Virus record (IMG/VR): IMGVR_UViG_3300032313_001281
Coordinates: 1-64,000 of that record
Source of the DNA: a virus
Reading direction: 5' to 3' (one strand)
Length of the DNA stretch: 64,000 nucleotides
A program made the position numbers and the translations under genes. Below the pieces are notes generated by a model. The model saw only the letters and a list, made by a program, of their open reading frames with translations. It did no database searches and had not been told where the DNA came from. Below, piece after piece: positions 22,699-27,442 of the stretch; the first letter of the stretch is position 1, and each line of letters opens with the position of its first letter.

Positions 22699-22920
22699 TT
22701 ATTTTACCTTGGCCATGTAATCGATCATGTTTAACTGACCGGCTTGCGCCTCCAGCAATGCATCAATGGGTGTGACATACTGATTGGTTTCGCGAGCACG
22801 GCGTTTCATTTCTCTCAGGCGTTGTGCGGCGGCGATCACAAGATCATAACGACCACCGGCATGTTTAACACAGCGTTCGGTATCAATTTGACCATTACGA
22901 CTTTCGATTCTTACACTCAT
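22699..22920 (-). CDS. rpoZ: RNA polymerase omega subunit homologue
   Basis: ERCVKHAGGRYDLVIAAAQRLRE...TPIDALLEAQAG matches the omega pattern (NRY/F-x-LV-xx-AxxRARQ...ALxEI). Confidence 0.75.
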   Translation of the reverse strand: MSVRIESRNGQIDTERCVKHAGGRYDLVIAAAQRLREMKRRARETNQYVTPIDALLEAQAGQLNMIDYMAKVK

Positions 22921-23093: not shown

Positions 23094-24137
23094 CTAACTG
23101 GGATTTTTACGTTTGAACTGGATCTTTTTATTGGTGGCTTTGAATCTTGTCACGGTCATGTTTTCCGGGCAAAGACTGCATTGTGGCACAGGTACGGCAC
23201 TGCGCAGATCATCCACAAATGATTCCAACTGATCGGTTGGCCAATCAACTTCGGCCGGCACATATGATTCTATTAGATGTCGTTGAGCAACTGACATGGT
23301 TACCGGAAACTGCTTGATGAAATCCGGTAGTATGCCCACGGGCCCGCATTTATAAAGTTTGCCCTTGATTATGTGATGGCATTTTTTAAAATAGCATACC
23401 TCCATGGCTCGCACGGGATCACTGTTGTGCAGAAACAGTCCGTGATTCACGGGATCATATGTCACAGTGGAAGTATTGAAACTGTCTGCCATGGCCAATT
23501 CAACCCTGATGCCATTGCGATCAACTATGCGATGGGTGAAGACTTCGCGAGACCAGATTTTGGGACTGAAATGATGTATGTCGTGGCATTCCTTCTGTAT
23601 GTGTATGGGCAAATCAAAAAAGTCATCCAGTGTGGCACAATCCGGCCAGCTGTCGTCGCGGATCCTGTGATAGCAAGAATTCCAAAGATTGAGCATACGT
23701 TGATCAACTAAGACATGTGCTGGATCGACCACGTCATCTAAAAAATCCATGATGTTGCGAGATATTTCAGATTTTGAATCTAGATTATGGCAATTGACTT
23801 CTAACATTATGCGACCGTTGTGTTCCAGCAACACATCGTACAACTGAGGCCAGCGAGCAAACTGTGTGCCATTGGTTATTATCTTGATCTTGCTGTGTGG
23901 CCATAGACTGGCGATGCCCTTGACCCATAACAGGAAATCTGGGTTGGTCATGGGTTCGCCGCCCAGTATTCCAACAGTGTCAAGATCTAGCAACTGGGCC
24001 CATTTCTGATTTTGGCTGACATGATCCTGCCAGCGAGTGTGCCCGGAAAAACTGTAATTGTTGCAGCGATTACAATTTGGACAGTTGAGATTGCACACAT
24101 TGGTTATATAAAATTCAGTATAGTCTAGCTTGAGCAT
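23094..24137 (-). CDS. Radical SAM protein with an inserted 'DxSWP' module
   Basis: CNLNCPNC, LGGEP, ITNG, C-terminal C..C..CSLC. Confidence 0.88.
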   Translation of the reverse strand: MLKLDYTEFYITNVCNLNCPNCNRCNNYSFSGHTRWQDHVSQNQKWAQLLDLDTVGILGGEPMTNPDFLLWVKGIASLWPHSKIKIITNGTQFARWPQLYDVLLEHNGRIMLEVNCHNLDSKSEISRNIMDFLDDVVDPAHVLVDQRMLNLWNSCYHRIRDDSWPDCATLDDFFDLPIHIQKECHDIHHFSPKIWSREVFTHRIVDRNGIRVELAMADSFNTSTVTYDPVNHGLFLHNSDPVRAMEVCYFKKCHHIIKGKLYKCGPVGILPDFIKQFPVTMSVAQRHLIESYVPAEVDWPTDQLESFVDDLRSAVPVPQCSLCPENMTVTRFKATNKKIQFKRKNPS

Positions 24138-24156
24138 TGCTGTATATATACACAAA

Positions 24157-24233
24157 TGGTCTCGGTGGCAACAATCGAACCTTCAACAGCTCCCTTCTGA
24201 GGAGAATACGTCTACCTGTTGCGCCACCGGGGT
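24157..24233 (-). pseudogene. Chimeric pseudo-tRNA (5' tRNA-Leu(CAG), 3' tRNA-Pro-like end)
   Basis: The first 57 nt are 53/57 identical to tRNA-Leu at 22991-23047. The 3' end ...GCCACCGAGACCA cannot rebuild the T-stem or the acceptor stem. Confidence 0.75.
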
Positions 24234-24292
24234 ATAGTGCAGGGATTCCACCTGCGCCCACTTCACTTTAGAGTCTGCGTGTCCAAGACTTG

Positions 24293-24907
24293 TTACATGG
24301 TTACTTGTGTAGTGCCATTTCCGTTTTTAAATCCTACAGTACCACCTTCGGCTTCAATCCTCTTGATAACGTCTTCAAACAGGATAGGCGCAAAGTCAGG
24401 AGTTTGTTCCACGCACACACAGTGATATCTTGTATCGATCTCGTTGCTGTATAGCGTTTCTCCGGTTCTAGCATCTACACCACGGGCACGCATCACACGA
24501 TTTGCATGCGTGTGTCCGTGTATGTTGACACCAAACCGCCCCAGACTGGCTTCGTGTACAGGAATATGGCTGAGAATCATGCCGTTCATCACATGGTAAG
24601 CACGCAGTTCACGGAAGTGTTCACGATAGTCAGTGTCCCGGAAGATGTCGTGGTTACCGCGGATCAGGACCTTGTCACCGTTGAGACGGGCTAGGGTGGC
24701 CAAGGCTCTACGATTGATCACCACATCACCCAAGTGATACACCTTGTCGTTGGGACGCACACGATCATTCCAAGCCGCAATCATGGCTTCGTCCATTTCC
24801 TCTGCCGAATCCCAGGGACGAAGCGGTGTGCAACCATCGCTACGTGTGAAGCGACATACGCCGGCATGGCCAAAGTGTGTGTCGCTGACTAAAAATACTG
24901 CTGGCAT
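24293..24907 (-). CDS. Calcineurin-like metallophosphoesterase
   Basis: SDTHFGH, HLGD, GNHD, LSH, HGHTH; AAGGAGG RBS before MPAVF. Confidence 0.92.
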   Translation of the reverse strand: MPAVFLVSDTHFGHAGVCRFTRSDGCTPLRPWDSAEEMDEAMIAAWNDRVRPNDKVYHLGDVVINRRALATLARLNGDKVLIRGNHDIFRDTDYREHFRELRAYHVMNGMILSHIPVHEASLGRFGVNIHGHTHANRVMRARGVDARTGETLYSNEIDTRYHCVCVEQTPDFAPILFEDVIKRIEAEGGTVGFKNGNGTTQVTM

Positions 24908-24932
24908 ACATGCCTCCTTTCTATGCAAAACA

Positions 24933-25006
24933 TGGCGCCGGCCTAGGGAATTGAACCCCAATTAACGGTTTTGGAGACCGCTGTAATGCCATTATACCAG
25001 ACCGAC
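24933..25006 (-). tRNA. tRNA-Trp(CCA)
   Basis: Loop CTCCAAA, GTTCAATTC, G73 discriminator, CCA. Confidence 0.9.
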
Positions 25007-25007
25007 C

Positions 25008-25085
25008 TGGAAGTGAGGGTCGGATTTGAACCGACGGCTTTAGGGATTTGCAGTCCCTTGCATTGGGCCTCTCTGCCACCTCACT
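25008..25085 (-). tRNA. tRNA-Cys(GCA)
   Basis: AGTGAGG/CCTCACT acceptor, loop CTGCAAA, U73 discriminator, CCA. Confidence 0.92.
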
Positions 25086-25091
25086 GTTGTT

Positions 25092-25165
25092 TGGTTGCGG
25101 GTGATGGAATCGAACCACCAACTGGAGCTTATGAGACTCCCGAGATACCGTTTCTCTAACCCGCG
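25092..25165 (-). tRNA. tRNA-Met(CAU), initiator type
   Basis: CGCGGGT/ACCCGCA acceptor with C1xA72 mismatch, loop CTCATAA, CCA. Confidence 0.88.
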
Positions 25166-25171
25166 TCTGTT

Positions 25172-25345
25172 TCACTGTTCTTGTTGCATTCTACGAAATT
25201 GCTCTTGCGCCCGAATCATTGCGGCCGCACGATCAATCTTGTTTTGAAACAGCCGTTGCTTTTGATCTTCGTTCAAAAAAACCGAAGTATGGTCATACGC
25301 TTGTTTCACAATCTGATCGTTTAATTTTGTATAATCAATCGACAT
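25172..25345 (-). CDS. Small hypothetical protein, 57 aa (not in ORF track)
   Basis: MSIDYTKLNDQIVKQAYDHTSVFLNEDQKQRLFQ...; TAAGGA RBS. Confidence 0.6.
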   Translation of the reverse strand: MSIDYTKLNDQIVKQAYDHTSVFLNEDQKQRLFQNKIDRAAAMIRAQEQFRRMQQEQ

Positions 25346-25358
25346 CTTTTTTTTCCTT

Positions 25359-25394
25359 AAAATAAAAAACCCCGGAGTTGTTAGTTCCAGGGTC
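25359..25394 (-). terminator. Intrinsic terminator in the leader of the tRNA operon (attenuator)
   Basis: GACCCTGGA-ACTAACAAC-TCCGGGGTT followed by TTTTATTTT. Confidence 0.85.
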
Positions 25395-25419
25395 TTTGAA
25401 TATGATATAATATGCTATA

Positions 25420-25521
25420 CTATTCGTTGCCCTGAATTTTTTCTTCACAAATGGACCATAGACCCACACTCCCATTTAAATTGGGTTGTGGTACAAGATG
25501 GGCGACTTTGCGATTCAACAT
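25420..25521 (-). CDS. Putative attenuator leader peptide, 33 aa
   Basis: MLNRKVAHLVPQPNLNGSVGLWSICEEKIQGNE*. ATG is 7 nt downstream of the -10 box; the stop codon lies inside the predicted antiterminator. Confidence 0.6.
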   Translation of the reverse strand: MLNRKVAHLVPQPNLNGSVGLWSICEEKIQGNE

Positions 25522-25527
25522 AGTAGT

Positions 25528-25556
25528 ATTATATATGATTATTTATACCTTGTCAA
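25528..25556 (-). promoter_or_regulatory. Consensus sigma70 promoter (with embedded TATAAATA) for the tRNA operon
   Basis: TTGACA-AGGTATAAATAATCATA-TATAAT. Confidence 0.88.
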
Positions 25557-25580
25557 CCTGGGCTATCCATAAATATTCCT

Positions 25581-26609
25581 ATGCTTGATCTAGCCGATGT
25601 ACGTCAAGTTCAAATTGAACTAACCACCCGTTGCAATGCCCGTTGTCCAATGTGTATGAGAAACTATCGTGGATACGATTACAACAGCGGGTATCCTGAG
25701 ACTGAACTTTCTTTGGAAGATATCAAAAAAATATTACCTGTTGAATTTTTAAAACAGTTGACCAAATGCATCAGCTTCAATGGTAATTTGGGAGATTTTG
25801 GTCTGGCACGCGATGCTCAAGAAATTGTGCATTATTTAACAGACTTGGATGTTCCGGTCCGTATCAACACCAATGGCAGCATGCGCACACCCGATTGGTG
25901 GGCCAATTTGGCCAGACCCGAAGTCACAATTGGTTTTGCACTGGATGGCATTGATCAACCTACGCATGCTCTGTATCGTCAAGACACAAATTGGGATACA
26001 GTTATAAAAAATGCCAAAGCATTTATATCTGCTGGGGGTAAAGCCATTTGGAGATTCATTCCCTTTGATCACAATCGTCATCAAGAATCTGCTTGCCGGC
26101 AAATGGCCCAGGACCTGGGATTTGCCATATTTGAAAACATTGATGAAGGCCGCAATCGTGGTGCTGTGTATACAAGATCGGGAGAATTCAGTCACTGGCT
26201 AGGGGAACCGTGGACTGAACAAGAAAGAATCAATCCTACTCCAGTGAAGCAGTTGCTTGACCATCATGTTACTTGGTTTGATACTAAAACCGTGCTGTCA
26301 GAAAAAGACACTCAACCACTGAATTTAATCTGTCAACACAAACGTCTTGAAGAGATATACATAGCTGCCGACGGCACAGTGTGGCCTTGTTGTTTTTTAG
26401 GGTTTTATCCGGCTACCATGCACCATCCTGGCAACAGTCAGTTGGCACCTCTGGTGGCAGAAAACAATGCCTTGGAATATGATCTAGCTCACTGTATGGC
26501 CTGGTTTAGCAGAGTAGAAGAAACCTGGAGCAAAAACAGCATAGCTGAAGGGCGTCTGTATGGGTGTGTGAACAGTTGCGCAAACAATAAATCAAATTAC
26601 CCTGGGTGA
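25581..26609 (+). CDS. Radical SAM protein with C-terminal SPASM/twitch domain
   Basis: CNARCPMC, GNLGD, TNGS, ALDG, IYIAADGTVWPCCFLG. Confidence 0.9.
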   Translation: MLDLADVRQVQIELTTRCNARCPMCMRNYRGYDYNSGYPETELSLEDIKKILPVEFLKQLTKCISFNGNLGDFGLARDAQEIVHYLTDLDVPVRINTNGSMRTPDWWANLARPEVTIGFALDGIDQPTHALYRQDTNWDTVIKNAKAFISAGGKAIWRFIPFDHNRHQESACRQMAQDLGFAIFENIDEGRNRGAVYTRSGEFSHWLGEPWTEQERINPTPVKQLLDHHVTWFDTKTVLSEKDTQPLNLICQHKRLEEIYIAADGTVWPCCFLGFYPATMHHPGNSQLAPLVAENNALEYDLAHCMAWFSRVEETWSKNSIAEGRLYGCVNSCANNKSNYPG

Positions 26610-26626
26610 TTGATACCACAATAACA

Positions 26627-27442
26627 TTATTGTATGCTGTGGTCCTGAGTTATGCGTCTATGCCAATTTTCAGCTATGAGCTCTTGACTGTAGGGACTGC
26701 CATGATAGCCTGGATCTTGGCCTTCAAAGCTGTTGTTGCCAGTGAGTGGTAACACACTTTCGCGTTCATTGAGCATGATATATTGATCGGGCAACATGCT
26801 AGGAAAGGCTTGACGCCATTGCTTGGTATTGTCGGGATCCCATGGCCATAGCAGACTGGGTTGTACAAAAAATGCCAGGCCATCAAAATACATCTGCAAG
26901 ATGCCTTCCACAATGATCCATTCGTCTTGTTGTTTTTTCCAGTTGCTGTCATACAGCTGGTCAATGTAGTATTTCATTGCTGTTTGAGTTTCTTTGGGAA
27001 TTAGATCCAAGCGATATGGATGCGTTCCGTTGTCGGCCAAAGTAAAAATAGTCTCGCATATCATGTTTGCCGGTTCGTTGCCATAGTTCACATTGCGAAT
27101 GCCGGCCAGGCGATCATACCCGTTGCCTAGCGCACGATTTTGCAAGTGGTTCTGTAGATGATTTTGATCGCGCTGTGTTTGTTTGGGCCATTCAAAGTTG
27201 GCACCACGGGCAGGAATTTCCATCCGGTCCCAGAATGTGGGAGTCACAATGGCAAAGTCCGGACGCTGTCTGCGGATTTCTTCCATTTGGATCCTGATGC
27301 CACCATTGGAGCATCCTTGCCGGGCTAGATTGGTCAGACGCCAGCCCAGGCGGTGGGCCAGACGTTCGCTCCAGCTGGTGCCAGGTAATTTTTGACTGGG
27401 TGCGCTGTAACTGCAACCTGCTACCATTAGGTGTTTTTGCAT
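26627..27442 (-). CDS. SGNH-hydrolase-like protein
   Basis: GCSYS, NLARQGCSN, DPGYH. Confidence 0.65.
   Translation of the reverse strand: MQKHLMVAGCSYSAPSQKLPGTSWSERLAHRLGWRLTNLARQGCSNGGIRIQMEEIRRQRPDFAIVTPTFWDRMEIPARGANFEWPKQTQRDQNHLQNHLQNRALGNGYDRLAGIRNVNYGNEPANMICETIFTLADNGTHPYRLDLIPKETQTAMKYYIDQLYDSNWKKQQDEWIIVEGILQMYFDGLAFFVQPSLLWPWDPDNTKQWRQAFPSMLPDQYIMLNERESVLPLTGNNSFEGQDPGYHGSPYSQELIAENWHRRITQDHSIQ

Follow-up and report, generated by a model that had tools for sequence, protein, structure and literature searches.

Organization of the locus

The stretch of DNA analysed here (hereafter, the window) comprises 64,000 nucleotides (nt) of the virus record IMGVR_UViG_3300032313_001281 from IMG/VR, a 76.8-kb sequence with a CheckV completeness of 22%. 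On its minus strand, a consensus promoter, a short leader open reading frame (ORF) and an intrinsic terminator stand at the head of a cluster of transfer RNA (tRNA) genes (Table 1). A preliminary description of the window, made from the sequence alone, had proposed that these parts form an attenuator of the trp/his type, in which the ribosome on the leader decides whether transcription proceeds into the tRNA genes. The comparison with related phages reported below makes this proposal probable. These relatives include contigs of 337-374 kb, several of them 96-100% complete and some with terminal repeats. By these sizes the phage family is one of giant phages, and the names of the samples suggest a lake (freshwater) habitat.

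The promoter, the ATG opening the 33-codon leader ORF and the terminator are all present where they had been placed in the preliminary description. The promoter is kept in all 42 close variants of the element, and sites of the form TTGAC-N18-TATAAT occur six times in the window, all on the minus strand, against a chance expectation of 0.06. The leader ATG (25521) lies 6 nt past the -10 hexamer, and the leader mRNA is predicted to be leaderless. In the minimum-energy fold of the RNA 25521-25350, the intrinsic terminator (25397-25359) forms a 12-bp stem followed by the U tract, and the folding z-score is -2.4 relative to dinucleotide shuffles. As for the regulated genes, the three tRNAs are indeed found downstream, but the first gene past the terminator is a 57-codon ORF that had gone unmentioned. 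No promoter-like or terminator-like sites are listed on the minus strand between 25359 and 24933; therefore, the leader, the 57-codon ORF and the three tRNAs would most simply belong to one transcript.

Table 1. Features of the putative attenuator locus and tmRNA genes of related loci (positions refer to the window unless a locus is named)
Feature	Position	Strand	Remarks
Sigma-70 consensus promoter	25528..25556	-	-35 hexamer 25556-25551, -10 hexamer 25533-25528; 17-nt spacer; 12/12 consensus positions
Leader ORF	25420..25521	-	33 codons and stop; stop codon 25422-25420
Candidate sensing codons of the leader ORF	Trp 25458-25456; Cys 25449-25447	-	One UGG, one UGU
5' domain	25445..25513	-	Long-range closing stem, 25513-25507 with 25451-25445
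Arm 2 (outer 5' strand of the antiterminator)	25430..25436	-	Within the last leader codons; pairs with 25392-25386
Inner hairpin of the antiterminator	25398..25425	-	5' strand holds the leader stop codon
Arm 3 (shared strand)	25386..25392	-	Partner is arm 2 (antiterminator) or arm 4 (terminator)
Arm 4 and U tract of the intrinsic terminator	25359..25376	-	Arm 4 25376-25370; U tract 25369-25359
57-codon ORF	25172..25345	-	Own ribosome-binding site; first gene past the terminator; 68-93% identical in nine relatives
tRNA-Met, tRNA-Cys, tRNA-Trp	24933..25165	-	Begin 6 nt past the 57-codon ORF
Metallophosphoesterase gene	24293..24907	-	Directly past tRNA-Trp; PHROG 547 (1.5e-48) and Pfam Metallophos_2
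tmRNA genes in relatives (examples)	L082:2524-2936; L084:2156-2598; L092:1102-1473; L249:1026-1412		

Distribution of the element

Close variants of the element were gathered from IMG/VR and metagenome contigs by means of the 57-codon ORF, the leader peptide and a spaced DNA pattern, which gave 42 distinct leaders (referred to below as the main family). Promoter and terminator are present in every one of them, as is an ORF of about 33 codons whose ATG follows the -10 hexamer at a distance of 6 nt or, in a few variants, 9 nt. Diverged homologues were detected with a covariance model of these 42 leaders, at E-values from 1e-13 to 6e-10; the model also matched two near-complete genomes, while further distant homologues were found through the promoter geometry (L177), through an alternative first ORF and by a pattern scan. 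One match of the covariance model (L213) lies within a coding region and was discarded as a false positive. The element thus occurs in at least five more distant subfamilies of freshwater giant phages with genomes of about 340-370 kb, and the complete phage genomes that carry it measure 344-356 kb. The peptides of the distant subfamilies have 31-49 codons and mostly cannot be aligned with the peptide of the window. One of these subfamilies (subfamily B) has a 5' untranslated region (UTR) of about 58 nt and is not leaderless, so that a leaderless start is not essential for the element.

In the loci examined, the element always heads a tRNA cluster, often just past a phage transfer-messenger RNA (tmRNA) gene. 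Nearly all loci of the main family have genes for tRNA-Cys and tRNA-Trp side by side, and the arrays headed by the element in subfamily B exceed 20 tRNAs and cover most amino acids. The bacterial and archaeal genome collection yielded no relative of the leader peptide, matches in the GenBank phage collection were confined to the tRNA stretches, and a search of Pfam and PHROGs with the peptide gave no match.

Two side observations concern the surroundings of the leader. Immediately upstream of the leader, most relatives have a tRNA-Met gene and a tmRNA gene of the permuted (two-piece) kind, which encodes a tag that is short in some relatives and has about 29 residues in others. The place of the tmRNA is taken in the window by a divergent radical S-adenosylmethionine (SAM) gene, and ARAGORN finds no tmRNA in the 64 kb. 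It was also seen that a consensus promoter with the start of a protein gene at the predicted +1 is a common arrangement (L174:1343, L227:1183, L230:123 and many loci among L169-L242); the genes abutting promoters in this way include an IF1-like gene, judged by eye, and those of a protein family with 66-79 residues. Leaderless mRNAs would accordingly be common in this phage family, and since ordinary genes share the arrangement, a leaderless leader ORF is plausible but not special to the element.

Two alternative structures share one strand

The hairpin that the preliminary description had drawn as an alternative to the terminator (25436-25386) exists as drawn and shares the strand 25392-25386 with the terminator. 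In the alignment of the 42 close variants, 91.6% of the cells of this antiterminator are paired and seven pairs are changed on both sides. None of 500 shuffles reaches the observed covariation score, and when the partner strand is slid, 22-46% of the cells are paired. Two of the compensatory pairs join arm 2 to arm 3 (AU in 28, GC in 9 and GU in 3 sequences for one; GC in 35 and AU in 7 for the other). The inner hairpin (helices 2-4) is 86-99% paired with three pairs changed on both sides, and three such pairs are also seen in the terminator, of which 98.5% of the cells are paired. Column 150 of the alignment, which belongs to arm 3, covaries in the same seven sequences with its arm-2 partner, column 94, and its arm-4 partner, column 168: the pair with arm 2 is GC in 35 and AU in 7, that with arm 4 is CG in 34 and UA in 7. 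Likewise, variants L143 and L144 are nearly identical over their first 80 nt, yet they differ in all three arms, each set being internally compatible. The three strands of the switch thus change as a set, which suggests that the 3' module may have been swapped by recombination. Judged by these pairings, antiterminator and terminator are mutually exclusive structures competing for a single strand.

The outer stem that closes the 5' domain has 92% of its cells paired, one pair varying between GC, GU and AU, and does not involve arm 2. The domain possibly serves as a pause or organising hairpin. Conserved inner helices within it were considered and rejected, as their pairs break without compensation. 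No conserved upstream segment pairing with arm 2 was found, and a pairing resembling the 1:2 hairpin of the trp attenuator appears in the fold of L217 only. For this reason, absence of translation should result in read-through, unlike in the case of trp.

Coding signature and stop position of the leader

The substitution pattern of the leader ORF argues that it is translated. In the main family, the summed entropies of the first, second and third codon positions are 11.8, 9.7 and 19.5, the pairwise ratio of nonsynonymous to synonymous substitution rates (dN/dS) is 0.30 in frame versus 1.4 in a shifted frame, and L131 and L136 carry an in-frame insertion of one codon. In subfamily B there is no third-position excess (9.0, 10.8 and 11.4). 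The position of the stop is maintained almost throughout: it falls within the 5' strand of the antiterminator in 41 of the 42 close variants and in all the distant ones. Particularly informative is a class of variants with one extra nucleotide before arm 2, in which the peptide is altered over that arm and the ORF terminates 4 nt earlier than usual, at an overlapping stop codon. Since the frame shifts and yet translation would stop nearby, what is kept is the nucleotide sequence of arm 2 and the stop position, not the amino acids.

Folding with and without a ribosome

Folding was computed for 73 sequences: the 42 close variants, eight distant homologues and 23 sequences of subfamily B. In minimum-energy folds, the nascent RNA lacking arm 4 adopts the antiterminator in all three sets without exception (42/42, 8/8 and 23/23), and a ribosome footprint placed at the stop converts all of them to the terminator (again 42/42, 8/8 and 23/23). 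The sets differ in the fold of the free full-length RNA, which prefers the terminator in 38 of the 42 close variants, in five of the eight distant homologues and in only two of the 23 subfamily-B sequences. The main family in this respect resembles trp, where the terminator is thermodynamically stronger than the antiterminator. In subfamily B, on the other hand, termination needs arm 2 to be blocked, because the free RNA so rarely prefers the terminator. That the terminator is nevertheless conserved there would be the strongest structural argument that arm 2 does get blocked, most simply by a terminating ribosome.

Two of the checks put forward in the preliminary description have thus come out in its favour. 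The search of relatives revealed a leader ORF, a stop position and stems that are conserved, with covariation, in the 42 close variants and in distant subfamilies, and the folding gave the antiterminator in 73 of 73 nascent RNAs and the terminator in 73 of 73 RNAs with a footprint.

Trp and Cys codons of the leader

The link to the Trp and Cys codons of the leader, proposed at the outset from the window alone, has gained support as well. At least one codon of each kind is present in every leader examined, namely in the 42 close variants, in 17 peptides of subfamily B and in representatives of the other subfamilies. Both residues are found in nine of nine subfamily representatives, and the proteins of the phage contain 1.95% Trp and 1.23% Cys. 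In subfamily B, Trp is located at position 24 in all 17 distinct peptides (23 in a peptide that is one residue shorter). Exactly one Cys is present in each of the 17, at position 4, 10, 22 or 29 (21 in the shorter peptide), and whenever one of these sites is occupied the others are empty. Since Cys is never lost and yet moves along an unconstrained peptide, a required codon fits better than a structural residue. This pattern points to codon sensing rather than to a peptide that is itself functional. The Cys codon of the window lies 11 nt upstream of arm 2. Given the usual size of the ribosome footprint, this would be about the last site at which a ribosome awaiting Cys-tRNA leaves arm 2 free.

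The broader idea that the leader mirrors the downstream tRNAs in its codons is unsupported across the whole ORF; matches between leader codons and tRNAs cluster at Trp, Cys and Glu, a pattern noticed post hoc. Provided that the attenuator is real, we see an even chance that the single Trp and Cys codons are what it senses. The main alternative under the same proviso is a general sensor of translation speed or ribosome availability, to which we give a distinctly smaller chance.

Proposed mechanism and alternative explanations

In our opinion, the element is likely to be a ribosome-dependent (leader-peptide) transcription attenuator heading a phage tRNA cluster. The geometry typical of trp/his-type attenuators has stood up in relatives, where leader ORF, terminator, exclusive antiterminator and stop position are all conserved or covarying. 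The parts, their conservation and covariation, the coding signature and the folding outcomes are matters of observation. From these we infer where transcription starts, that the leader is in fact translated and that read-through changes in response, as follows. A host-type consensus promoter would start the RNA at or beside the AUG of the 33-codon ORF, the last codons and stop of which would form the 5' strand of the antiterminator, and the 3' strand of the antiterminator would double as the 5' strand of the intrinsic terminator. A ribosome translating promptly to the stop would cover the 5' strand of the antiterminator, leaving the shared strand to pair downstream, and transcription would terminate after about 158 nt. 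If the ribosome were absent or delayed early in the ORF, the antiterminator would form first and transcription would read through into the 57-codon ORF, tRNA-Met, tRNA-Cys, tRNA-Trp and the genes behind them. The phage tRNAs would then probably be transcribed mainly when decoding is slow or ribosomes are absent. If Trp and Cys are specifically sensed, the device would report the speed at which their rare codons are decoded.

A number of observations weigh against this interpretation. The terminator loop, at 9 nt, is bigger than in typical strong terminators. For 38 of the 42 main-family variants the free full-length RNA favours the terminator, the margin in the window being about 6 kcal/mol, so that read-through would depend on folding kinetics; such kinetic action of an antiterminator is accepted for the trp attenuator. 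There is one Trp and one Cys codon in the leader of the window and one or two of each in relatives, with no tandem run. A comparison of leader codons with downstream tRNAs at ten loci revealed no excess over phage codon usage (P 0.06-0.57), and in several arrays of subfamily B neither tRNA-Trp nor tRNA-Cys is encoded by the first 22 tRNA genes. Plain codon sensing does not account for the purifying selection on the peptide of the main family (dN/dS 0.30), a signal absent from subfamily B. In one close variant, L133, the leader frame runs through the terminator; here (L133:2149-2314) the +1 frame is combined with loss of the overlapping stop, which may reflect a natural mutation, recombination or faulty assembly. 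Two complete relatives, G002 and G005, show no match to the covariance model or to the 57-codon ORF, and G002 has a tmRNA with no tRNA genes behind it; the element is therefore either not universal or has diverged past detection. Finally, one marine metatranscriptome contained 5% of the sampled words, in contigs that are short, mostly less than 95% identical and uninformative on expression or on transcript starts and ends.

Among competing explanations, the most serious one keeps the same attenuator and is in effect a variant of the one we favour. It holds that any delay or failure of leader translation, be it through few ribosomes, lack of initiator tRNA or a slow codon, sets the switch, and that Trp and Cys are nothing special. 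The lack of a conserved anti-antiterminator pairing with arm 2, which means that any upstream stall or a missing ribosome would give read-through, agrees with such a general sensor of translation status, and so do the subfamily-B arrays of more than 20 tRNAs spanning most amino acids and the absence of codon mirroring. Nonetheless, we regard it as rather unlikely, given that in otherwise freely diverging peptides the Trp codon is never lost and the single Cys is kept but mobile, and that the main-family Cys codon coincides with the last stall position leaving arm 2 free. Another explanation would be that the short transcript is a stand-alone small gene or small RNA, with the peptide or the RNA as the product and with incidental, unregulated read-through. 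A strong promoter and a terminator would indeed delimit a separate transcript of about 158 nt, purifying selection acts on the peptide of the main family, and in Sinorhizobium both attenuator RNAs and leader peptides are known to have independent functions (PMC7968998; bioRxiv 10.1101/606483). It is, however, hard to see on these grounds why arm 2 and the 5' strand of the terminator change in concert and why arm 2 is kept as nucleotides across frame changes, or why the stop position is fixed relative to the hairpin. In subfamily B, moreover, where the peptide is free of coding-type constraint, the switch has nevertheless been retained and the free RNA rarely folds into the terminator. The movable Cys speaks against a folded functional peptide, and the peptide has no Pfam or PHROGs match. 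Taking these points together, we consider a stand-alone product improbable.

Two further explanations assign the key role to the peptide itself. In nascent-peptide arrest leaders of the TnaC, SpeFL or Erm type, the peptide stalls the ribosome from within the exit tunnel in response to a small molecule and thereby sets the switch. It would fit such a leader that further residues of the main-family peptide, besides Trp and Cys, are kept while their codons change synonymously, four codons being in use for Leu9, and that in two subfamilies Trp lies about 12 and Cys about 8 residues before the last residue, a spacing that recalls that of the key residues in TnaC. However, the distance from Trp to the stop ranges from 12 to 25 codons among subfamilies, Cys can be anywhere from codon 4 to codon 31, and the subfamily-B peptides have no third-position excess. 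With no fixed distance of key residues and with a movable Cys, arrest by the peptide is quite improbable, slightly more so than a stand-alone product. The other possibility, that the leader encodes the precursor of a ribosomally synthesized and post-translationally modified peptide (RiPP) matured by an adjacent radical SAM/SPASM enzyme, is brought to mind by the gene arrangement of the window, where a radical SAM gene with a weak SPASM match adjoins the leader divergently and a second radical SAM gene is nearby. Yet among the nine loci found via the 57-codon ORF, a radical SAM gene lies beside the leader only in the window, L083 and L088, and of 80 loci fetched with the radical SAM protein just two contain the leader, on the same contigs as L083 and L088. 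The element travels with the tRNA cluster instead. Because the radical SAM gene and the leader do not co-occur, we reject the RiPP precursor as extremely unlikely.

Comparison with known systems

Like the enterobacterial attenuators trpL, hisL, leuL, thrL and pheL (Rfam RF00513, RF00514 and relatives), the phage element has a short, apparently translated leader ORF, an intrinsic terminator before the genes and a strand common to antiterminator and terminator, and in both a ribosome at the stop would lead to termination and an earlier hold-up to read-through. There are also clear differences. The phage element would regulate tRNA genes and small phage ORFs rather than biosynthetic enzymes, it has single Trp and Cys codons instead of tandem runs, and its start is predicted to be leaderless. 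In addition, no conserved 1:2 anti-antiterminator was found in it, so that lack of translation would turn it on, not off. In a permissive Rfam scan of 24000-27000, only the tRNAs were recognized: His_leader reached 21 bits versus a cut-off of 49, Thr_leader 16.7 versus 55, other leader families remained far below threshold, and there was no match to the T-box riboswitch. A full-text literature search found control of this type described for amino-acid genes and no attenuator of tRNA genes.

Partial parallels to the proposed physiology exist elsewhere. The mycobacterial polycysteine leaderless short ORFs (bioRxiv 10.1101/834739, Canestrari et al.) are likewise first cistrons in which pausing at Cys codons is reported to control downstream genes. 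Their Cys codons form tracts, and their effect is on translation, through the unmasking of a ribosome-binding site, whereas the phage element has one or two Cys codons, an intrinsic terminator and no homology to them, and subfamily B is not leaderless. The trn tRNA operon of Anabaena PCC 7120 is silent until translational stress induces it (PMC8421152), and is controlled by the ribbon-helix-helix repressor TrcR (PMC10272220). An extra tRNA array that is kept low and turned on when translation is impaired is the very logic proposed here, but its control is by a repressor protein and it resides on a cellular megaplasmid, not in a phage; the text of PMC8421152 does not contain the terms 'attenuat', 'leader peptide' or 'terminator'. 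The trp attenuator of Sinorhizobium is reported to give rise to a trans-acting RNA, rnTrpL, and a peptide, peTrpL (PMC7968998). The downstream genes are different, and the likeness is that a terminated RNA and its leader peptide may have functions of their own. By analogy, such a function could explain the purifying selection on the main-family peptide.

Neighbouring genes

No convincing family was found for the 57-codon ORF, all matches being below threshold (PHROG 18290, E 0.005; Pfam FIVAR, below the cut-off), and searches of Pfam and PHROGs with two alternative first ORFs likewise gave sub-threshold matches only. The tRNAs announced as fMet, Cys and Trp correspond to the tRNA-Met, tRNA-Cys and tRNA-Trp genes of Table 1. 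The tRNA-Met (25092-25165, minus strand) has the C1/A72 mismatch of initiator type, and its anticodon stem is without the three consecutive G-C pairs normal for bacterial initiators. The metallophosphoesterase gene is probably on the same transcript as the tRNAs. Its relatives occur in at least 600 IMG/VR loci, the best 80 being 82-88% identical, and are usually located within or beside tRNA arrays; a role of the enzyme in RNA-end healing is possible.

The divergent radical SAM gene with its weak SPASM match spans 25581-26609, and the second radical SAM gene spans 24155-23094. Behind another promoter (22970-22942), a 73-codon ORF (22699-22920, minus strand) resembles the omega subunit of RNA polymerase. 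The match to Pfam RNA_pol_Rpb6 (E 1e-4) is under the curated cut-off, and the ORF is kept in relatives (e.g. L104:5315-5578). If the resemblance is genuine, an omega-like protein within the tRNA region of a phage is unusual.

Implications for phage tRNA genes

Why and when phages use their tRNA genes is a matter of debate, the proposals including codon bias, supply late in infection and escape from tRNA-cleaving defences. A gauge of decoding, whether of UGG/UGY speed or of any translation, would make the tRNA supply of the phage inducible when host tRNAs are short. We offer this only tentatively and hold it to be rather doubtful. The shortage could be caused by anticodon nucleases, by toxins specific for tRNA-Cys or tRNA-Trp, or by host shut-off. 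A toxin of Mycobacterium tuberculosis is reported to cleave tRNA-Cys only and to stall ribosomes at Cys codons (PMC13096801). The proposed trigger therefore exists in nature, which does not mean that it acts here, and an anti-defence purpose is speculation. If it were true, the tRNA cluster would represent a sensed counter-defence rather than a constitutive one.

As the evolutionary signature of a sensing codon, if that is what it is, the single, mobile Cys codon is unusually clean. The element itself makes a compact test case, being about 200 nt long, equipped with a consensus promoter and directly portable to reporter assays. If our interpretation is correct, ribosome-mediated attenuation, the textbook mechanism of amino-acid operons, would extend to RNA genes and to viruses. 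A built-in gauge of this kind would mean that the phage measures the decoding capacity available to it and makes its tRNAs on demand.

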